Assembly: GCA_000004695.1 (NCBI GenBank)
Contig: CM000150.2
Location: forward strand, 3,648,001 to 3,712,000
DNA length: 64,000 nucleotides
Origin: Dictyostelium discoideum
Taxonomy: Eukaryota
Direction of reading: 5' to 3'
Below the pieces are notes generated by a model. The model saw nothing but the letters and a program-made list of their open reading frames with translations, was not told the origin of the DNA and did no database searches. The translations under genes were made by a program, and so were the position numbers. Of this stretch, positions 1,783-28,516 are shown piece by piece. Numbering within the stretch: position 1 is the stretch's first letter; each line of letters opens with the position of its first letter.

Positions 1783-4408
1783 ATGGCCGATTTAAACTCT
1801 GTTATTAGAATTAAACCATTTCATTTCATTCACGTAAGTTTATAAAAAAAAAAAACAATAAAAAAAAAAGTAATCATTATTAATTTATTTTTTAATTTTT
1901 TATTTTTTTTATATAAATTAATTTTAGGTATTAGATAATAATACAAATGTTACTAGAGTTGAAGTTGGACCACAAACTTTTACAAGACAAGATCATGAAA
2001 AGTTAGTAAGTGGCCCAGAACCAATGATTATGATCCCACAACGTAACTATTGTACAATTTCAAATCCAGTAGTTCGTAATGAAAATGGTTCATTAGTATT
2101 GGATGAATATGGTCAAGTTAAATTAAGACATGGTGATGAAGAGATTCGTTTCTCACAAGAACCATTCCCATTATATCCAGGTGAAAAAATTTCAGGTAAA
2201 GTTACCGCTCTCCAAGTTGTTGCACCATTAAAGGCTTTACGTCTTCGTGCTCTCCGTGATTTCACTGAAGCTAAAGTCACTCATGTTGCTGGTGATGAAT
2301 GGTTATTTGAAGGTCCAGCAACCTATCTCCCACGTATTGATGTTAGAATTGAAGAAGAAATCAAAGCAACCATCATTGGACCAAATCAAGCACTCAAATT
2401 ACGTGCCAACAAAGCATGTTCCGATCGTTCAGGTGTTGCAAGAAAAGCTGGTGAAGAGTGGTTAGTTCGTCAACATGGTGCCTACCTCCCAGGTGTCGAT
2501 GAAAAAGTCGTTGAAATTGTAAATGCCTACGTCTTAACTGACAAGAAAGCACTCCACCTCAAAGCCACTAAAACCTTTTTAGATGAAACCAGAAAAACAC
2601 AACGTAAAGCTGGTGAGGAATGGTTAGTTGTTAGCACCGATGCTGAAACTCATATCCCAGATGTTTATGAACAAGTCGTTGGTGAAGTTCATATTACTAC
2701 CCTCTCAAATCGTCAATACTGTGTTGTTTTGGATCCAATTGGTGCCAATGGTAAACCACAACTTGGTCATAAACAATTAAGAAAGGGTGAACTCGCTTTC
2801 TTCTTAAACCCAGGTGAATCATTAGAAGGTAACAAAATTCACAATATCTACGTTTTAACCGAACAAGAAGCACTCTTACTCCGTGCTAAAGAAACCTTTT
2901 CCATTGATGGTGAATCTCATTTAGCTGGTGATCGTTGGATGATCTATGGTCCATGTGATTATGTTCCACCAGTTCAAGTTGAAGTCGTTGAAAAACGTGA
3001 ATCCATTCCATTGGATGAAAATGAAGGTATCTACGTTCGTGATATTAAAACCGGTAAAGTTGCATCAATCAAAGGTCAATCATACATGTTAAAAGCAAAT
3101 GAAGAACTTTGGGAAAAAGTTTTACCACGTACTGTCGAAGAAGTTCTTGCCAAAGAATCACTCAACCCAGAATTCACTGATAATCGTGATTCAACTCGTG
3201 TTGTTACCTATCGTGCTCCACACAATAGTGCTGTTCAAATCTATGATTACAAAGAAAAGAAATCACGTGTTGTCTTTGGTCCAGATCTTGTTATGTTAGG
3301 TCCAGATGAACATTTCACCGTTCTCTCTTTATCTGGTGATAAACCAAAACGTCCACATCAAATCAAAGCTATCGCTCTCTTTTTAGGTCCAGATTTCATG
3401 ACTGATGTTGTCATTGTCGAAACTTCTGATCATGCTCGTCTCTCCCTTAAATTATCATACAATTGGGAATTCAAAGTTGATCGTTCCAAGATTGAAGATG
3501 CTCAAAAGATCTTCCAAGTACCAGATTTTGTTGGTGACTCATGTAAAGCTATTGCCTCAAGAGTTAGAGGTGCTGTTGCTGCAGTCTCTTTTGATGATTT
3601 CCACAAACGTTCCGCTGAAGTCATCCGTCAATCCGTTTTTGGTTTAGATGAATCTGGTGAAGTCCGTAAGAACTTCTCTTTCAATTCAAACAACCTTGTC
3701 ATCACCAACATTGATATTCAATCTGTTGAACCAGTCGATCAACGTACTCGTGATTCACTCCAAAAATCTGTCCAATTGGCCATTGAAATCACCACCAAAT
3801 CACAAGAAGCTGCTGCTCGTCATGAAGCTGAACGTCTTGAACAAGGTGCTCGTGGTAGACTCGAACGTCAAAAGATTCACGATGAAGCTCAAGCAGAGTT
3901 AGCTCGTAAAGATTTATTACAACTCCAAGCTCAATCAGCTGCAGTCGAGTCAACTGGTCAAGCTACCGCTGAAGCTCAAGCTACTGCTGAAGCTGCTAAC
4001 ATTGCTGCTGAAGCCAATGTTAAACAAGCTGAATTAAAAGCTCAAGCCACCAAGATTCGTTCAGAATCTGAAATTTCTCTCTTAAAAGCCAAGAGAGAAA
4101 ATGAACTCTCATACCAAAAATCAATTGATGAACTCGAACTCACCAAACAATCTGATCTCGCTGAAATTGAAGCCTCCAAATTCAAAGCAATCGTTGAATC
4201 CATTGGTAGAGATACCCTCAAATCAATTGCTTGTGCTGGTAATGAAATGCAAGCTAAATTATTACAAGGTTTGGGTCTTAAATCATTTATGATCACCGAC
4301 GGTAAATCACCACTCAACCTTTTCGATACTGCCAACGGTATCATTGGTAATAACAATCAAATGGTAAACATGTCAAATGCTGCCAAACAATCTGGTAGAA
4401 GAAATTAA
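1783..4408 (+). CDS. mvpA: Major vault protein alpha; exons 1783..1833 and 1928..4408
   Basis: ATG at 1783 encodes [17 protein letters not shown], followed by a GTAAGT donor at 1834 and a TTTTAG acceptor ending at 1927. This joins in frame to the 794-aa ORF ([18 protein letters not shown]...). The MVP repeat and shoulder domains and the C-terminal coiled coil are recognisable, and the N-terminus matches my memory of Dictyostelium MVP-alpha. Confidence 0.93.
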
Positions 4409-4812
4409 AAAAAAATAATAATCAAAAAAAAAAAAAAAAAAAAAAAAAACAAATACCATTTTCAAATACAAAAAAAAAAAAAAAGAATGAGATAAAAAAC
4501 ATTCTTTTTTTTTATTAGAACAAAAAATATTTAGTTTTTTTTTAAAATAATGATAATAAAATAAAAAAAACTATTGTAAAATTAAATTTCTATATAATAT
4601 TTAATACATATTTTTATTTTTAATTAAATAATTTGATTTTATATTAATACTTTTATTTTTGGAAATTATCTCTAATTTTTTTGATTATTTTTATTAAAAA
4701 ATAAAATTATTTCAGATAAAAAAAGAAATAATTTTTTTGGTTGGAAAAAGATAATTTTTATTTATTTTGTTTGGGTTGAAAGAGGAGTTAAAAAAAAAAA
4801 AATGTTGTAAAA

Positions 4813-4820
4813 ATAATTTT
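4813..4820 (+). promoter_or_regulatory. DUSE-like element (ACCCATAA) as found upstream of Dictyostelium small ncRNA genes
   Basis: It matches the [AT]CCCA[CT]AA consensus exactly. It sits in a small GC-richer island (gggttgagcgaacccataa) within otherwise AT-only intergenic DNA. Confidence 0.3.
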
Positions 4821-4879
4821 GGGTTGAGCGAACCCATAATAAATTTTAATATTTAAGAACCTCTTGGATTTTTGTTTTA

Positions 4880-4995
4880 ATTTTTAGGAGTAAAGATAAA
4901 ATTAAAGGAAGATTTGGAGTGTACAAAGGAATATCAATATCAAGATATATTTACGATATATTTTATAATTCTTTCCACAATAGAGCAATTTTTAA
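4880..4995 (+). ncRNA. Candidate small non-coding RNA downstream of the DUSE-like motif (speculative)
   Basis: About 60 nt downstream of the motif begins a 115-nt segment of atypically balanced composition (ggagtaaagataaaattaaaggaagatttggagtgtacaaaggaatatcaatatcaagatatatttacgatat…ccacaatagagcaattttt). It ends in a T5 run (a Pol III-type terminator). There is no ORF and no clear C/D or H/ACA boxes. Confidence 0.2.
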
Positions 4996-5374
4996 AAACA
5001 AAAAAAAATCTATATTTGAATAAATACAAAAACAAATAATAATATATTATTATTATTTTCGAAATTAAATTCTTTCATTTTTTATTTTTTTTATTTTTAT
5101 TCAATTTGATTAATTGTTTTGATTTTTTTAAAAAAAAAATAATTTGGACATTAAATGTTAAAAATAAATCTTTTTTTTTTTTATCAAAAAATTCTAAAAA
5201 TAACTATTAAAATATCTAAATATTAAAATAAATATTAATTAAATAAATAAATAAATTTTGATAAAAATAAATTAAAGTTGATAATTATTTATTATTATTG
5301 ATAAAATTTTTTTTCAAAGAAAACTAAAAATAAAAATTTATAAGAAAATCTGATTAAATTTTTTTTTTATTAAT

Positions 5375-7402
<2,028 letters not shown>

Positions 7403-18427: not shown

Positions 18428-19019
18428 AAAAAAAAATAAAAAAAAAAAATAAAAAAAAAAAATATACAAACAAATCAAAAGAAGATTCATTATGAAAAAA
18501 AATAAAATTAAATTAAATGTTTTATCAAATTATATTGGTAAATCAATATTTTAAAAAAATAAAAAAAAAATAAACAAACCAAAAGAAGATTCATTGTGAA
18601 AAAAAAAAAAAAAAAAAAAAAAGGTTTTAATTATTCAAATTGTATTGATAAATCAATAAAAAATATATGTAGTGGTGGTGCTAATTCCGTAAATACAAGT
18701 TTTCAATCTTTACCAACAATTTAGTACTAGTATTATTAGTAATAAATTCAAATAATTTCTTCAAAAACCGAAATTTATCTTTATATTTCGACATGAAGAA
18801 AAAAATAATTAATTTGCTGATATTGCTATCAATCTTTATAGTTTAGAAACTCAAAAGAAAAATCAATCAATCTTCAAATAAGGAGAAAAAATTAAAGTAA
18901 TAATAAAAAAAAATTATTATTTACTAAAAATTACTATTTATTTAGATTAAATTTATTTATTTATTTAATTTAATTTTTTTTTTTTTTTTTTTTAAATTGA
19001 TTTTAGTTTTGTTTTAAAT

Positions 19020-19381
19020 TTAACAACATCTACGATGACGACGACGACCAATATCAATGTCAAGGTTAATGATATTTGTGTTTGAACCTCCACTACAACC
19101 ACCATTAAAACCACCATCACCACCCCATCCACTTAAACCACCCCATCCACCTAAACCACTACCACCACAACCACCATCAAAATATGCAATTGAATTATCA
19201 TTACTAGTGAATCCATTACGATTAGAGGTACTATTTGAACTTCCCATTGCACTAGTTGAATTTGAAATTGATGAAATTGATTCTGTTATATTATAATAGT
19301 GGTAAATGATTAGTTGTTGTAAAATAAAAAAATAAAAAAATAAATAAAAAATAAGAATTAATATTTACTAAAAATTGCCAT
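19020..19381 (-). CDS. Small Gly/Cys-rich hssA/2C/7E-like protein, copy 1; exons 19381..19369 and 19282..19020
   Basis: A 13-nt first exon ATGGCAATTTTTA is followed by a GTAAAT donor, a 86-nt intron and a CAG acceptor. Exon 2 gives [91 protein letters not shown] (91 aa). The architecture (SISSIS N-terminus, Gly-rich core, C-terminal Cys pair) resembles the Dictyostelium hssA/sigN small-protein family (recalled from memory, not searched). Confidence 0.65.
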
Positions 19382-19713
19382 TGTTATTTGTTGTTTTTTA
19401 AAATGTTTTGGTTTTATTTTTTATAATTTTATAATTTTTAAAATATAAATAGTTAATTAAATTGTTTGATTAAATTATATTAAAAAAAAAAAAAAAAAAT
19501 TTAAATGATAGGAATTTCCATTATTTACAAAAACAACTTTTTTTAAAATATATAAATTTAATTTTTAAAAACAAAGATTTTGTTATTTTATTGATAAATT
19601 AATCAAACAATTTAATAAACTATTTATATTTAAAAAATAATAAAAAATAATAAAAAATAAAAAATAAAATCATTTTTTAAAAAAAAAAAGTTTTTAAAAA
19701 TCAATACAAATAA

Positions 19714-20034
19714 ATGGCAATTTTTAGTAAATATTAATTCATTCTTTTTTTTTAAATTAACATTGCTTTTACTTACATTATAGAACTAATTTCATTAATT
19801 TCAAATTCTACTGGTTCAATGGGAAGTTCAATTGGTACCTCTAATCCTGATGGATTTGCTAGTAACAATAATTCAATTGCATGTTTTGATGGTGGTTGTG
19901 GTAGTGGTTCAGGTAGATGGAGTGGTATGGGTGGTATTGGTGGTTTTAATGGTGGTTGAGGTGGTTGTGGAGGTTCAAACACAAATATCATTAATATTGA
20001 TATTGATTTATGTCGTCGTCGTAGATGCTGTTAG
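19714..20034 (+). pseudogene. hssA/2C/7E-like copy 3 with an in-frame TGA (probable pseudogene); exons 19714..19726 and 19784..20034
   Basis: Same 13-nt first exon and GTAAAT donor. Exon 2 [82 protein letters not shown] has TGA at 19957-19959 in frame, plus a 6-nt insertion relative to its paralogs. Confidence 0.55.
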
Positions 20035-20469
20035 TTTCCTCTTAAAATTTAAATTATTATAAATATACAAAAGTTTTTTATTTTTTTTAAAAAAAAAACA
20101 AAAAATAAAATATTTTTTTAATTTTTACCTACATTTTCTTGTATTTTATTCATTGAATGTCTTTATTCTCTATTTTTAAAATAAGATGATTTTTTAAAAA
20201 ATAAAAAAATAAAAAAAAAAAATAAAAATAAAAAATAAACCTAAGAGATTTCAAACATTTTTTAATATCTGAAATATTTTATTTTATTTTTAAACTTGGA
20301 ATTAAATCAATATTTTGTAATTATATTAAATAAAAAAAGAAGAAAAAGAAAAAAAAGAAAAAAAATAAGAAAAAACTTTAAAAAAAAAATAAAATTAATG
20401 TATTGATAGATCTTTAAAATGAAAATAAAAAGATAGTTAATATTATTATTTTATTGATTAGAAAAAATT

Positions 20470-20600
20470 AACAACATTATGATGACGACTACATCCAATA
20501 TCAAAGTCACATCCTCCCAAACCATCACCAGAACATGTGTTGAATTATCATTGAAAATTGATCCATTATAACTACTGGTGGGGATTGAACTTGATGTTGA
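20470..20600 (-). pseudogene. Truncated degenerate relic of an hssA/2C/7E-like gene
   Basis: The minus strand reads …GGCDFDIGCSRHHNVVN*, a decayed version of the family C-terminus …[23 protein letters not shown]. It has no 5' exon or ATG. Confidence 0.4.
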
Positions 20601-20690
20601 TCCAGATGAATTTGTAAAATTATTATTTAAAATAGTTTGTAAAATTTAAAGTTTATAATATTTACAAAAAATTGACATTTTCTTGATATT

Positions 20691-20768
20691 TATTGTTTTT
20701 TTTTGTTTTTCTTTGTTTTTCTTTGTTTTTCTTTGTTTTTCTTTGTTTTTATTTGTTTTTATTTGTTC
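20691..20768. repeat. (CTTTGTTTTT)n decamer tandem array (about 7 units)
   Basis: ttttgtttttctttgtttttctttgtttttctttgtttttctttgtttttatttgtttttatttg lies between hssA-like relics. Confidence 0.85.
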
Positions 20769-21035
20769 TAATTAATAAGTAACAAAATTATAAATTTATA
20801 GTTTTTTAATTTTGCAAAAAAAAAAAAAAATAAAATAAAATGAAATAATATAAAAAAAGTTGTTTTACAAATCTATTTATTTAATTATGGAAATTCCTAT
20901 CAATTAAAATTTTATTTTATTTTAAAATAAATTAATTAAATAATTTAATTAACTATTTAAATTGGAATAAAAAATTAAAAAAAAAAATAAAAAAAAAATC
21001 ATTTTTTAAAAAAATAAACAAGTAAAAACAAAAAA

Positions 21036-21397
21036 ATGGCAATTTTTAGTAAATATTATTTCTTTCTCACTTTTTTTTTTTTTTTTTTTTGATTATGAAT
21101 AATAACTAATGATAAAATTATAAAAAAATAATAGAATCAATTTCATCAATTTCAAATTCTACTGGTTCAATGGGAAGTTCAATTAGTGCCTCTAATCTTG
21201 ATGGAATTGATAGTAACAATAATTCAATTGCATGTTTTGATGGTGGTTGTGGTGGTAGTGGTTTAGGTGGATGGAGTGGTTTTAATGGATTGGATGGTAT
21301 TGGTGGTTTTAATGGTGGTTGTAGTGGAGGTTCAAACACAAATATCATTAACCTTGACATCGATATTGGTCGTCGTCGTCATCGTAGATGTTGTTAA
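21036..21397 (+). CDS. Small Gly/Cys-rich hssA/2C/7E-like protein, copy 2; exons 21036..21048 and 21135..21397
   Basis: Identical 13-nt first exon and GTAAAT donor, with the AG acceptor at 21133-21134. It encodes [91 protein letters not shown]. The last 24 residues are identical to copy 1. Confidence 0.65.
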
Positions 21398-21574
21398 TTT
21401 ACTCTAATTAATAATAATAATAATATTGATAATTAAAAATAATAATAAATAAAAAGTTAAACTGTTTTTTTTTATTCTTTCTTTATTTTTTATTTTTTTT
21501 TAAATTTTATTATTTTTATTATTATAAACTTTTTAATAATAATAATAATAATTAAATATTAAAAAAATATTTAA

Positions 21575-24995: not shown

Positions 24996-25859
24996 TAAAT
25001 TTAAAAAAATATAAAAATTATAAAAATAATAAAAATAAAAAAAAAAAGATAGAAATTTTTGAATAGAAAAAGTTTTTTTTTATGACTTTGATTTTGTTTT
25101 ATTTATTTTGTTTATTTATCTTTAGTTTTTTTTTTTTTTTTTTCATAAAAAATCCATTTTTTTATAAATTTTATTCTAGTTGTTTTTCAAAACAAAAAAA
25201 AAAAACAATTATAAAAAATGAATGGGAAATAAATTTTTTTTCTTTTTTATTTTGTTTAAAATTTGAATGTTTTTATTAATATTATTAAATCTAATAAGAT
25301 TTTAATTTTATTTAGAAATTTTTTTTTTTTTTTTATTTTCATATTAAAACTAAATAATTAAGTAAAACAAATTAATCTCCATTAGGAGTCTCGGTCATAA
25401 TGATAAGATTTTATATTTTTTTATTTTTAATTTTTTATTTTTATTTTTATTTTTTTTATTTTATAAAATTAACAAACACACAAAAATATGAAAAATAATA
25501 CAATAAAATAAAAACTAGGATAAAATATGATTATTATCATAATTTAAAATATAAAAATTAATAATCATTATGGATATTTTAATAAAAATTAATAATGTAA
25601 AAAAAAAAAAAAAAAAAAATTTAGTTTCAAATAAAAAAAAAAAAAAAAAAATGATTGTAAACAGAATAACATGACGATAATAATTATTTTCGTCCATAGA
25701 AATTCATTTTTGAAATTTTATTAAAAAATTTTTTTTTATTTTTTTTTTATTTTTTATTTTTTTTTTTTTTAAATTTCAATGAGAAAAATCTAATTTTTTT
25801 TTTTTTTCATTTTATTTTACTTACTCCAAAATCATATATATATATAATTAAAAAAAAAA

Positions 25860-26359
25860 ATGACAACCGTATGTAGTAATAATATAACCAACCTTTTTTT
25901 TTAAAAAATATTTAATTATTATTATTATTCAGAATATTATAAAAGAAATAAATGAAAAAATATTAATACTAGAAAATATTTTTTTTTTTTAAATTTATAT
26001 GATTAGTTTGAAGAAGCTGCTCAAAAAGTTAAAGAATTCACCAAGAAACCATCAAATGATGAATTATTAAGCCTTTATGGCTTATATAAGCAAGGAACCG
26101 ATGGTGACTGCAATATTAGCGAGCCATGGGCCGTACAAGTTGAGGCAAAGGCCAAGGCAAGTGTTTTTTTGATATAAATGGAGCAATTCTACTGCAAACT
26201 GAAAACAAGGATTTTCATACTAACTTTCCCTTTTTTTTTATTTTTTATTTTTATAAAATATAGTATAACGCTTGGAATGCTCTCAAAGGTACCTCAAAAG
26301 AAGATGCCAAAGCTAAATACGTTGCTCTCTATGAACAATTAGCCACCAAATACGCTTAA
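25860..26359 (+). CDS. acbA: Acyl-CoA-binding protein AcbA (precursor of the spore-differentiation peptide SDF-2); exons 25860..25868, 26007..26156, 26264..26359
   Basis: MTT | FEEAAQKVKEFTKKPSNDELLSLYGLYKQGTDGDCNISEPWAVQVEAKAK | YNAWNALKGTSKEDAKAKYVALYEQLATKYA* is a canonical ACBP fold and 84 aa as I recall for AcbA. Intron 1 has a GTATGT donor and a gattag acceptor. Intron 2 has AAG|GCAAGT (an apparent GC donor) and aaatatag|. Confidence 0.88.
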
Positions 26360-26540
26360 GTTATTCTAAATCTATTATAATAGTCTAATTGTTTTTACAA
26401 TTAAAATATAATAAAATAAAAGAATACTTTATTGTTTTTATAAATGTATTTAAAAAAAGACCATTCTATTTTTTTTTTTTTTTAATTATCCCTAAATATT
26501 TAAACAAGACTGGAAATACTGGTGGATATCATATCAATAT

Positions 26541-26750
26541 TAAGTGGCCTTTATGGCTTATATAAGCAAGGAACCGATGGTGACTGCAATATTTGTGAAC
26601 CTTTGGGCTGTATAAGTCGAGGCAAAGGCCAAGTGTTTTTTTGATATAAATAGAACAATTCTACTGCAAATAGGATTTCCAAAAATAACTTTACTTTTTT
26701 TATAAAATGGTATAAACCTTGGAATGTCTTCAAAGAATTAGCCACCAACC
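26541..26750 (+). pseudogene. Degraded partial duplicate of acbA (part of exon 2 + intron 2 + exon 3)
   Basis: About 210 nt collinear with acbA 26076..26359, including intron sequence (…gtgtttttttgatataaata…), with deletions and substitutions (LSGLYGLYKQGTDGDCNICEPLGC…). It has no start and no intact frame. Confidence 0.65.
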
Positions 26751-27571
26751 GCCATATTATTATTATTATTATTATTTTTTATTTATTTTTATTAGTTCAC
26801 AACAAATTGTTTTTATTTTTTTTTCATTTTTTTTAAAAACAATGGCATATGATTTTAAAGAATTTTTTTTTTTTTTTTTTTGAATAATTAATATCTAAAA
26901 AAAAAATAATAACAAATATTATCATATATCCTCTTAATTCTATTTCATTTTCGAAAATAGTCTGAAAAATAATAATAATAATAAATAAATTTTAAATCAT
27001 TTTGAAATTGGTCATTTTTTGATATATAAAAAAAAAAAAAAAAAAAAAAAAAATTAAAAATATTTTCCTTTTTTTATAACTCTATCAAAATAAATTTATA
27101 GTTTTAGCTCGCTCATATTCTATATAAAAATTAAAACATTTGGAATTATAAAAAAAAAAAGAATAACAAAAGAATTTCGCTTTTTTGTAATGTGGCAAAA
27201 AAGGTCGGAAATTTCTGCTTAAATAAAAAATATCTTCTCAACAATTAATGAAAAAAAAAAAAAATTAAACAACCAAAAAAATAAAATAAAAATTATAAAT
27301 ATATAATGAAAAAAATGATATATAGTTTAAAAAAGAACAATAAAATTTGCTTAATAATAGTTTTTGTAAATTTATATATTAAATCATTGTTTGAAAAAAA
27401 AATGAAAAAGAAATGATAAAAAAAAAAAAAAAAAAAAAAATGAAATTTGAAGGATGTTTTTAAAACTGGAAAAAAAAATAAACCAAGATTTAATATTTTC
27501 TAAACTAGTTTAAAAATTTTATTTACAAATATATAGTTAACAATATTGTTTATTTAGTAATGTGATAAAAG

Positions 27572-28516
27572 TTAAACAATGAGTTGATATTTATTTTGTT
27601 TATTCTTTTTATCTTTTGGTATAAATAGAAATGAGATACCACCAACTATAAAAAAGAAAGCAATTGCATTTAATAACCAACCTAAATGTGGTCTATAATA
27701 AGTTGTATCAGTTGAACCAATAAATTCCAATGCACTATTTGCATTATAACCAATACTATCTTGATCATCATTGACACTAGTGCTACTACTACTACTACTA
27801 CTACTTGAACTATTTTGAGGTGTAATTAAACAGTTTCCTAATAAATTACATTCTTTATCGAAATATTGTCTAAATGATAATAGATATAATACAGAACCAA
27901 TATTGAATACTAAACAAATGAAACCAACAACTTTTGATAGAATACACATTAAGAATGCATTGTGTTTACTTTTAACTTTTAAATTTATTAATTGTAATAT
28001 TAATATTACAAAATTACAACATAATGATACTATTGAACATGTTAAACATATTAAAAAAACATCTTGGGTATCAATTGCTTTGTCATACCCAATATCCTTT
28101 ATAAATGTTGATGAATAATCATTTGATTTTTTATATGATCTTAAAGATAGTAAATATGATGTTGACCATTTAGATGTTTGTTGTTCTTGCTGTGGTGGTA
28201 TATCAACTGATGATGATTGGTTTCCAATTATATAATTTTCAATTTCAATATTTGTATATCTAAAATAATAAATCTCATTATCTGAAAATTTAATTTTATA
28301 CCAATATGCTAATTTTTTAATTTTTTAATTTTTTATTTTATTTTATTTTATTTTTCCATATTGGAATTAAAACTATTAAAACTTTATTTAATTTTTTAAA
28401 AATTTAATTTTTTTTTTTTTTTTTTTTTATCACATACATTGTAATGAAATTGAAAATAAAATAAAAGAGCCTACAAATAATAATATTGTAATTATATCTT
28501 TTTTTAATTTTTGCAT
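27572..28516 (-). CDS. Hypothetical multi-pass membrane protein with N-terminal signal/anchor; exons 28516..28438 and 28308..27572
   Basis: ATG at 28516 (MQKLKKDIITILLFVGSFILFSISLQ) is followed by a GTATGT donor, a 129-nt intron and a ttag acceptor. Exon 2 reads in frame through three further hydrophobic helices (VFLICLTCSIVSLCCNFVILILQLINL; FLMCILSKVVGFICLVFNIGSVLYLL; LGWLLNAIAFFFIVGGISFLFI) and a poly-Ser loop. This gives a 4-TM topology (PMP22/claudin-like fold is a guess only). Confidence 0.5.

Follow-up and report, generated by a model that had tools for sequence, protein, structure and literature searches.

A partial copy of acbA downstream of its parent gene in Dictyostelium discoideum, probably a non-functional relic of one local duplication

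A short sequence that resembles part of acbA lies downstream of this gene in Dictyostelium discoideum, and it raises the question of how and when such a fragment arose and whether it serves any function beside its parent. The first-pass annotation had described 26541-26750 as collinear with acbA and located approximately 180 bp downstream of it. The locus was analyzed within a window of 64,000 nt, the whole stretch of DNA under study, which is AT-rich Dictyostelium DNA with a GC content of 21% and an intergenic G+C of approximately 14%. Coordinates of all features are given in Table 1.

Table 1. Features of the acbA locus, of the downstream copy, and of other gene copies in the window
Feature	Position	Strand	Basis or content
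Functional acbA gene	25860..26359	+	Spliced translation matches AcbA
acbA exon 1	25860-25868
acbA intron 1	25869-26006
acbA exon 2	26007-26156
acbA intron 2	26157-26263		GC-AG type
acbA exon 3	26264-26359		Includes TAA stop
Duplicated parental segment	26071..26349	+	Collinear alignment with 26547-26748
acbA 3' UTR and spacer between parent and copy	26360..26532	+	Direct sequence reading
Left junction	26533..26546	+	ATCAATATTAAG then TGG
Exon-2-derived part of copy	26547..26631	+	Alignment to acbA
Intron-2-derived part of copy	26632..26710	+	Alignment to acbA
Exon-3-derived part of copy	26711..26748	+	Alignment to acbA
Right flank	26749..26840	+	CCGCCAT, then (ATT)n and T-rich; orthologous to L002 6410-6337
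Direct-repeat block	26071-26130 / 26547-26606		60 nt, 92%
Direct-repeat block	26158-26198 / 26630-26670		41 nt, 95%
Direct-repeat block	26243-26288 / 26690-26735		46 nt, 76%
Gly/Cys-rich gene copy	19020-19247	-
Gly/Cys-rich gene copy	19819-19959	+
Gly/Cys-rich gene copy	21170-21397	+

The splice model of the parent gene yielded an 84-aa protein with 100% identity over its full length to AcbA of D. discoideum AX4, and the product was assigned to the Pfam family ACBP (PF00887). In the duplicated parental segment, intron 2 is complete and is bordered on either side by 86 nt, from the end of exon 2 and from the start of exon 3; the segment ends 10 nt short of the end of the coding sequence. Intron 2 of acbA has the donor AAG/GCAAGT (intron positions 26157-26162) and the 3' end ATATAG. 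This GC donor is common to AX4 and to the two relatives referred to below as L002 and L003, the corresponding donor in D. citrinum is a normal GTAATG, and the second intron of T. lacteum acbA is found at another codon.

The resemblance between the two sequences was confirmed by several comparisons. A repeat finder identified three collinear direct-repeat blocks, and a gapped local alignment of acbA with the copy contained 226 matches and 22 mismatches (91% in aligned columns); a stricter alignment of 26063-26352 with 26534-26755 contained 192 matches and 17 mismatches. In a six-sequence MAFFT alignment, which has fewer gaps, the divergence between parent and copy was 12.6%. Firm homology extended over 26547-26748 of the copy (from 26533 with the junction) and 26071-26349 of acbA, and the distance from the acbA stop codon (26359) to the copy was 181-187 bp. 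The alignment score of 236.5 was approximately 55 standard deviations over that of 300 dinucleotide-preserving shuffles (24.0 +/- 3.8, with a maximum of 41.5), and the copy thus shows the significant DNA homology to a functional parent that characterizes duplicated pseudogenes. The collinearity that had been read from the letters was therefore borne out, and the identity is far above the 60% under which the first-pass annotation would have attributed the resemblance to chance.

The matching part of the copy has a GC content of 34%. Across the 64-kb window and 77 kb of related loci, acbA was the sole non-low-complexity match of the fragment, and the remaining matches within the window all fell on the (ATT)n tail past 26754. 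Copies at several unrelated sites, as expected of a dispersed repeat or transposable element, were not found in this sequence, and the fragment does not belong to a larger unrelated repeat, which the first-pass annotation had named as the other ground for abandoning its claim.

Other gene copies were observed elsewhere in the window. A small gene for a Gly/Cys-rich protein of approximately 75 aa (MGSS...GGCGG...RRRHRRCC) occurs three times in the interval 19017-21400. The middle copy is cut short by a stop and is possibly a pseudogene, and the outer two form a 282-nt inverted repeat of 90% identity.

Intron 2 of acbA (26158-26263) was aligned to 26630-26710 of the copy. Because intron sequence is included, the copy is a DNA-level duplicate and not a retrocopy, as the first-pass annotation had also concluded; additionally, no 3' UTR or poly(A) tract was found past the copy, and it adjoins its parent. 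The left junction reads ATCAATATTAAG-TGG-CCTTTATGG. Its TATTAAG also occurs as the 7 nt directly before the parental segment (26064-26070) and constitutes a microhomology, and the TGG has no parental counterpart. Homology to L003 at this junction runs to ...TCAAAAATAAAAG and diverges beyond it. The first 47 nt of the copy (26547-26593) are identical to acbA exon 2, and the right end reads ...GCCACCAA, so that the copy has neither a stop codon nor a 3' UTR. The first 64 nt of exon 2 and the last 10 nt of the coding sequence are also missing, as are exon 1 and intron 1. The loss of exon 1 and of the first third of exon 2 had been noticed beforehand, and the missing share of exon 2 amounts to approximately 40%.

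Several lesions disable what was copied. A 1-nt insertion at 26602 (an extra T) shifts the frame, a motif resembling a branch point was changed from ACTAAC to AATAAC, the acceptor AG became GG (26709-26710), and 48 bp of exon 3 (parental positions 26289-26336) were deleted between 26735 and 26736. A 5-bp deletion across the boundary of exon 2 and intron 2 was found in the AX4 copy only. The acbA-like frame includes 46 open codons (26504-26644) but no ATG, and stops occur in all frames. The translated string given in the first-pass annotation as evidence of a closed frame, GLYKQGTDGDCNICEPLGCISRGKGQVFF followed by a stop, was reproduced exactly, and its description as a pseudo-exon remnant holds. 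Its account of internal deletions stands for the truncation of exon 3 and only in part for the shortening of the intron: a 7-bp intron stretch was present in the AX4 parent alone in the multi-species alignment and represents an insertion in that parent. Much of the other length difference in the intron falls in a poly-T/ATTTTT tract, which is variable in length among the parental genes.

Related loci were reached through the neighboring gene for a mitochondrial-type HisRS, and three close relatives with assemblies were identified. These included L002, labeled "D. discoideum" (GCA_054859355.1, HisRS 96% identical), L003, labeled "D. cf. discoideum" (GCA_054859235.1, 94%), and D. citrinum (L004, GCA_054859145.1, 90%); a T. 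lacteum locus (L001) was also included. The acbA gene was found in all four loci. The fragment was present in L002 at the orthologous site (6631-6412), with 86% identity to the AX4 fragment; its left junction, its right end (…ACCAAC.. CCATATTATT), and its 48-bp deletion in exon 3 all agree with those of AX4. The extra T, the altered branch-site motif, and the loss of the acceptor AG were likewise shared by both copies. The L002 copy keeps the donor GGCAAGT, which is gone from the AX4 copy, has a 7-bp deletion of its own, and is broken in frame at places other than those in AX4. Since it was seen in two independent assemblies, the copy is not an assembly artefact. A second acbA-like sequence was sought and not found in the L003 and D. 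citrinum loci. The comparison among strains and species that the first-pass annotation had recommended thus showed a fragment that is old and common to one sister lineage. Beyond these loci, a degenerate acbA DNA pattern had no matches among metagenome contigs, and lookups in a contig index returned no match for the spliced AcbA, for AX4 AcbA, for the neighboring 422-aa ORF, or for the ORF that spans the fragment on the minus strand.

The L002 sequence also differed from AX4 in broader respects. Over window positions 25234-26840 the two differ by approximately 3% in exons and 9% in intergenic DNA, and the mean diversity within D. discoideum is 0.3% (bioRxiv 10.1101/2025.10.22.684067). Because the divergence is far over this mean, L002 may be a cryptic sister lineage despite its D. 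discoideum label. Additionally, the fragment region of L002 is separated from the TM-protein gene by approximately 3.5 kb of extra DNA (2055-5592), in which an ORF listing revealed no large or recognizable ORF.

The relationships among the copies were examined at variable sites where all four AX4 and L002 sequences were present. The copies were grouped against the parents at 11 sites, and the paralogs within a genome were grouped at one; the AX4 and L002 copies clustered in 96.5% of neighbor-joining (NJ) bootstraps. Because of these site patterns and this clustering, the duplication is regarded as a single event that predated the AX4/L002 split, with most of the damage already present by then. 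Since L002 shares the fragment, and L003 and D. citrinum are without it, the event is dated after the split from D. citrinum and before that of AX4 and L002.

Rates of change in the copy were assessed by comparing AX4 with L002 by region. Divergence was 2.7-3.1% in the live exons, 4.4-9.5% in introns, and 7.6-12.2% in upstream, spacer, and downstream DNA. The whole fragment had a divergence of 8.9% (19/214), indistinguishable from that of pooled non-coding DNA (8.5%, 91/1073; Fisher p = 0.89). Its exon-derived parts differed at 15 of 116 positions and the live exons at 7 of 246 (p = 5e-4), an approximately fivefold faster rate, and the difference was most evident in the part derived from exon 2 (12/77, or 15.6%, versus 4/150 in the functional exon 2). 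Of 14 lineage-specific substitutions in the two copies, 10 were from GC to AT and two from AT to GC (binomial p = 0.003), a bias that is expected of unconstrained DNA at the intergenic base composition of this genome. The neutral rate, the fast change of formerly coding parts, and the bias toward AT together indicate evolution without purifying selection.

The fragment is therefore best regarded as a neutral relic, a non-functional and unprocessed piece of acbA that was produced by one local duplication and has drifted since, to which we assign a probability of about 0.85. Under this reading, a single local event would have copied approximately 280 bp of acbA (late exon 2, intron 2, and most of exon 3) in the same orientation to a site approximately 185 bp downstream of the gene. 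A replication template switch, slippage, or end-joining repair may have been responsible, and such mechanisms fit because the junction combines a 7-nt microhomology (TATTAAG) with three unmatched bases. The loss of part of the 3' UTR would have followed or accompanied the duplication. The frameshift, the 48-bp deletion in exon 3, and the damage to the acceptor and branch site were in place by the separation of AX4 and L002, and the copy has since drifted as fast as intergenic DNA, through AT-biased substitutions and through small deletions specific to each lineage. The resulting copy encodes nothing, cannot be spliced as its parent is, and most likely has no function.

A simple tandem form of this neutral-relic model is not favored. 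A repeat of the acbA 3' UTR and spacer was sought past the copy, and none above chance was found (26352-26545 against 26754-27100, where 119 of 300 shuffles reached the score); the 3' UTR and spacer are thus not repeated after the copy as they would be in a simple head-to-tail unit. A tandem origin could be masked by a secondary deletion of these parts, and the model must therefore assume either an additional deletion of approximately 190 bp or a two-switch event.

The main competing explanation concerns an inversion at the same locus. When the CH-domain and TM-protein genes on either side are taken as the reference, acbA and its promoter (at least window 25601-26487) were found to be inverted in AX4, L002, and L003, as judged against D. 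citrinum (L004 7081-7911) and T. lacteum (L001 6001-6405). Homology of the spacer between acbA and the copy to L002, L003, and D. citrinum reaches approximately 26487-26540, and that with L003 and D. citrinum stops where the fragment starts. A very permissive blastn search of the L003 and L004 intergenic DNA returned only AT-rich noise, but it extended the homology of the 3' flank to approximately 26487-26511. Because the homology ends where the fragment begins, the fragment sits at an inversion breakpoint. It might then be a by-product of the inverting rearrangement, produced in the ancestor that AX4, L002, and L003 share (by serial template switching, for instance) and lost later in L003. 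The fragment would be as non-functional as in the neutral-relic model, with a difference in origin only.

Some of the phylogenetic evidence is consistent with such an early origin. In the NJ analysis the copy lineage fell outside the three parental genes of the discoideum clade in 85% of bootstraps, which implies a loss in L003; three or four intron sites are common to the copies and D. citrinum only; and a rough distance estimate placed the duplication at approximately 1.9 times the depth of the AX4-L002 split, similar to the L003 split. However, the outside placement possibly results from long-branch attraction to the D. citrinum outgroup. Two derived sites and the JC-corrected distances of the L002 copy favor an origin after the L003 split: the derived GAG (26141-26143) and AGC (26118-26120) are common to the copies and to the AX4 and L002 parents, but are absent from L003 and D. 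citrinum. L003 also has the inversion without the copy. In addition, an inversion through staggered breaks leaves two duplicates in inverted orientation, one at each end of the segment that was turned. Because the copy and its parent are direct and adjacent, a simple inversion of this kind is insufficient, and a separate slippage or template switch, or a more complex single rearrangement, is possible instead. An origin as an inversion by-product is thus considered a minority possibility, and the neutral relic of a separate local duplication is preferred.

Additional irregularities were observed between acbA and the neighboring TM-protein gene. The intergenic interval of approximately 1 kb at window 26483-27455 could not be aligned with L003 5607-6734, and both of its flanks are 80-92% identical; this interval has been either replaced or diverged past recognition. 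D. citrinum carries a partial duplicate (L004 6755-6930, approximately 70% identical) of the 3' end of the TM-protein gene approximately 500 bp downstream of that gene, with its source at L004 6130-6318 (the orthologue of window 27593-27743), and it represents the second small duplication of local origin seen within this interval. With the acbA inversion, the fragment, the D. citrinum partial duplicate, and the 3.5-kb size difference in L002, the interval emerges as rearrangement-prone.

Readings that attribute a function to the fragment fared less well. Between AX4 and L002, the 78 nt derived from the intron differed at only two positions. This gave a one-sided binomial p of 0.03 against the non-coding background (post hoc) and a Fisher p of 0.08, and the faint suggestion of constraint was treated as chance. 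It is improbable, at a small fraction of the weight given to the neutral relic, that the fragment, or at least this intron core, is kept because it regulates acbA, and through it SDF-2 spore signaling, as a cis-element or as a source of antisense or other non-coding RNA, or that it is an occasional partner in gene conversion. Within one genome, parent and copy shared a substitution at 26105/26581, the site 26183/26655, and a single-base indel. Conversion between the two was considered and set aside, because 11 sites follow "orthology" and a single clear site is "concerted", which is insufficient for such a claim.

A more specific proposal, suggested in part by the first-pass annotation, is that the fragment is kept as a source of antisense or small RNAs that tune acbA, for example by read-through from the convergent gene on the minus strand (27572-27949). 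D. discoideum is known to have small RNAs antisense to mRNAs (PMC2175303), and the fragment, which has survived the AX4/L002 split, lies between genes that converge 3' to 3' and offers long stretches that are nearly identical to acbA, including the perfect match of 47 nt. However, the part that matches the mRNA is the fastest to evolve and has suffered independent deletions in each lineage, the copy as a whole evolves at the neutral rate, and L003 and D. citrinum manage without it. The architecture of an siRNA locus was also not observed: the copy is in direct orientation, it has no inverted partner outside AT-rich sequence, and its RNA fold was no better than that of shuffled controls on either strand (z = 0.11 and 1.34). 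Searches of the whole window with Rfam (gathering thresholds) and ARAGORN for tRNAs gave no hits, and the 2007 small-RNA survey does not mention acbA (PMC2175303). The sequence itself gives no support to a role in producing such RNAs, which would be slightly harder still to credit than the broader functional readings.

Even less probable is a use of the fragment as alternative 3' exons or UTR sequence of acbA transcripts. It is on the acbA strand within reach of the stop codon, at approximately 185 bp, but AATAAA motifs at approximately 26410-26420 precede it in the sequence. Because of their position, the mature acbA mRNA probably ends before the copy. In AX4 and L002 alike the acceptor AG is lost and the ACTAAC-like branch site is altered, and the frame is not continuous with that of acbA. 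Finally, chance AT-rich similarity, an assembly artefact, or a dispersed repeat, which might be suspected in an AT-rich genome where the (ATT)n tail matches many sites in the window, was refuted by the window search (acbA as the sole real match, at 34% GC), the shuffled scores, and the copy in the independent L002 assembly.

As a neutral relic, the fragment provides a small and datable example of how a local duplication arises and decays in an extremely AT-rich genome, in which formerly coding DNA loses G+C at the neutral rate beside live exons that are nearly fixed. It can also serve as a presence/absence marker that separates the lineage of AX4 and L002 from "D. cf. discoideum" and D. citrinum. 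In practice, probes, primers, guide RNAs, and short reads for acbA exon 2 can cross-match 26547-26593.

The fragment was not described in the literature searched for acbA with pseudogene, for DDB_G0270658, and for Dictyostelium small RNAs with pseudogene, a search that covered papers. What is newly shown here is that L002 shares the fragment, junctions and 48-bp deletion included, and that it was not found in L003 or L004; the class of pseudogene is an ordinary one. As in other duplicated pseudogene fragments left by local segmental duplication, intron sequence is kept, the copy stands beside its parent and points the same way, both of its ends are cut off, its frame is broken by shifts and deletions, and its rate of change is neutral. 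Unlike the usual members of this class, it spans only approximately 200 bp, is not a clean head-to-tail repeat, and is found at the edge of an inverted segment.

Comparisons can also be drawn with pseudogenes in other systems. Pseudogene-derived loci of endogenous siRNAs have been described in mouse oocytes, where they are transcribed in antisense or form inverted-repeat hairpins. A pseudogene of high identity such as the acbA copy could in principle pair with the parent mRNA, but the copy is in direct orientation and forms no hairpin. Within the ACBP family, pseudogenes of mammalian ACBP are dispersed on other chromosomes and are mostly processed, whereas the acbA copy lies near its parent, includes an intron, and represents only part of the gene. 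Several DBI-related loci are present in human, rat, and mouse, of which one is functional (PMC7672186). Like the acbA copy, the others are dead members of a family whose product is also the precursor of a peptide signal. A parallel in Dictyostelium is provided by tgrB_ps and tgrC_ps1 in the tgrBC locus, which are pseudogene relics of local duplication (bioRxiv 10.1101/2025.10.22.684067). Both cases involve a local duplication followed by decay, with variation among D. discoideum, its cryptic sisters, and D. citrinum. The tgr genes, however, belong to a fast-evolving family under diversifying selection, whereas acbA is a conserved single-copy gene accompanied by a lone fragment.
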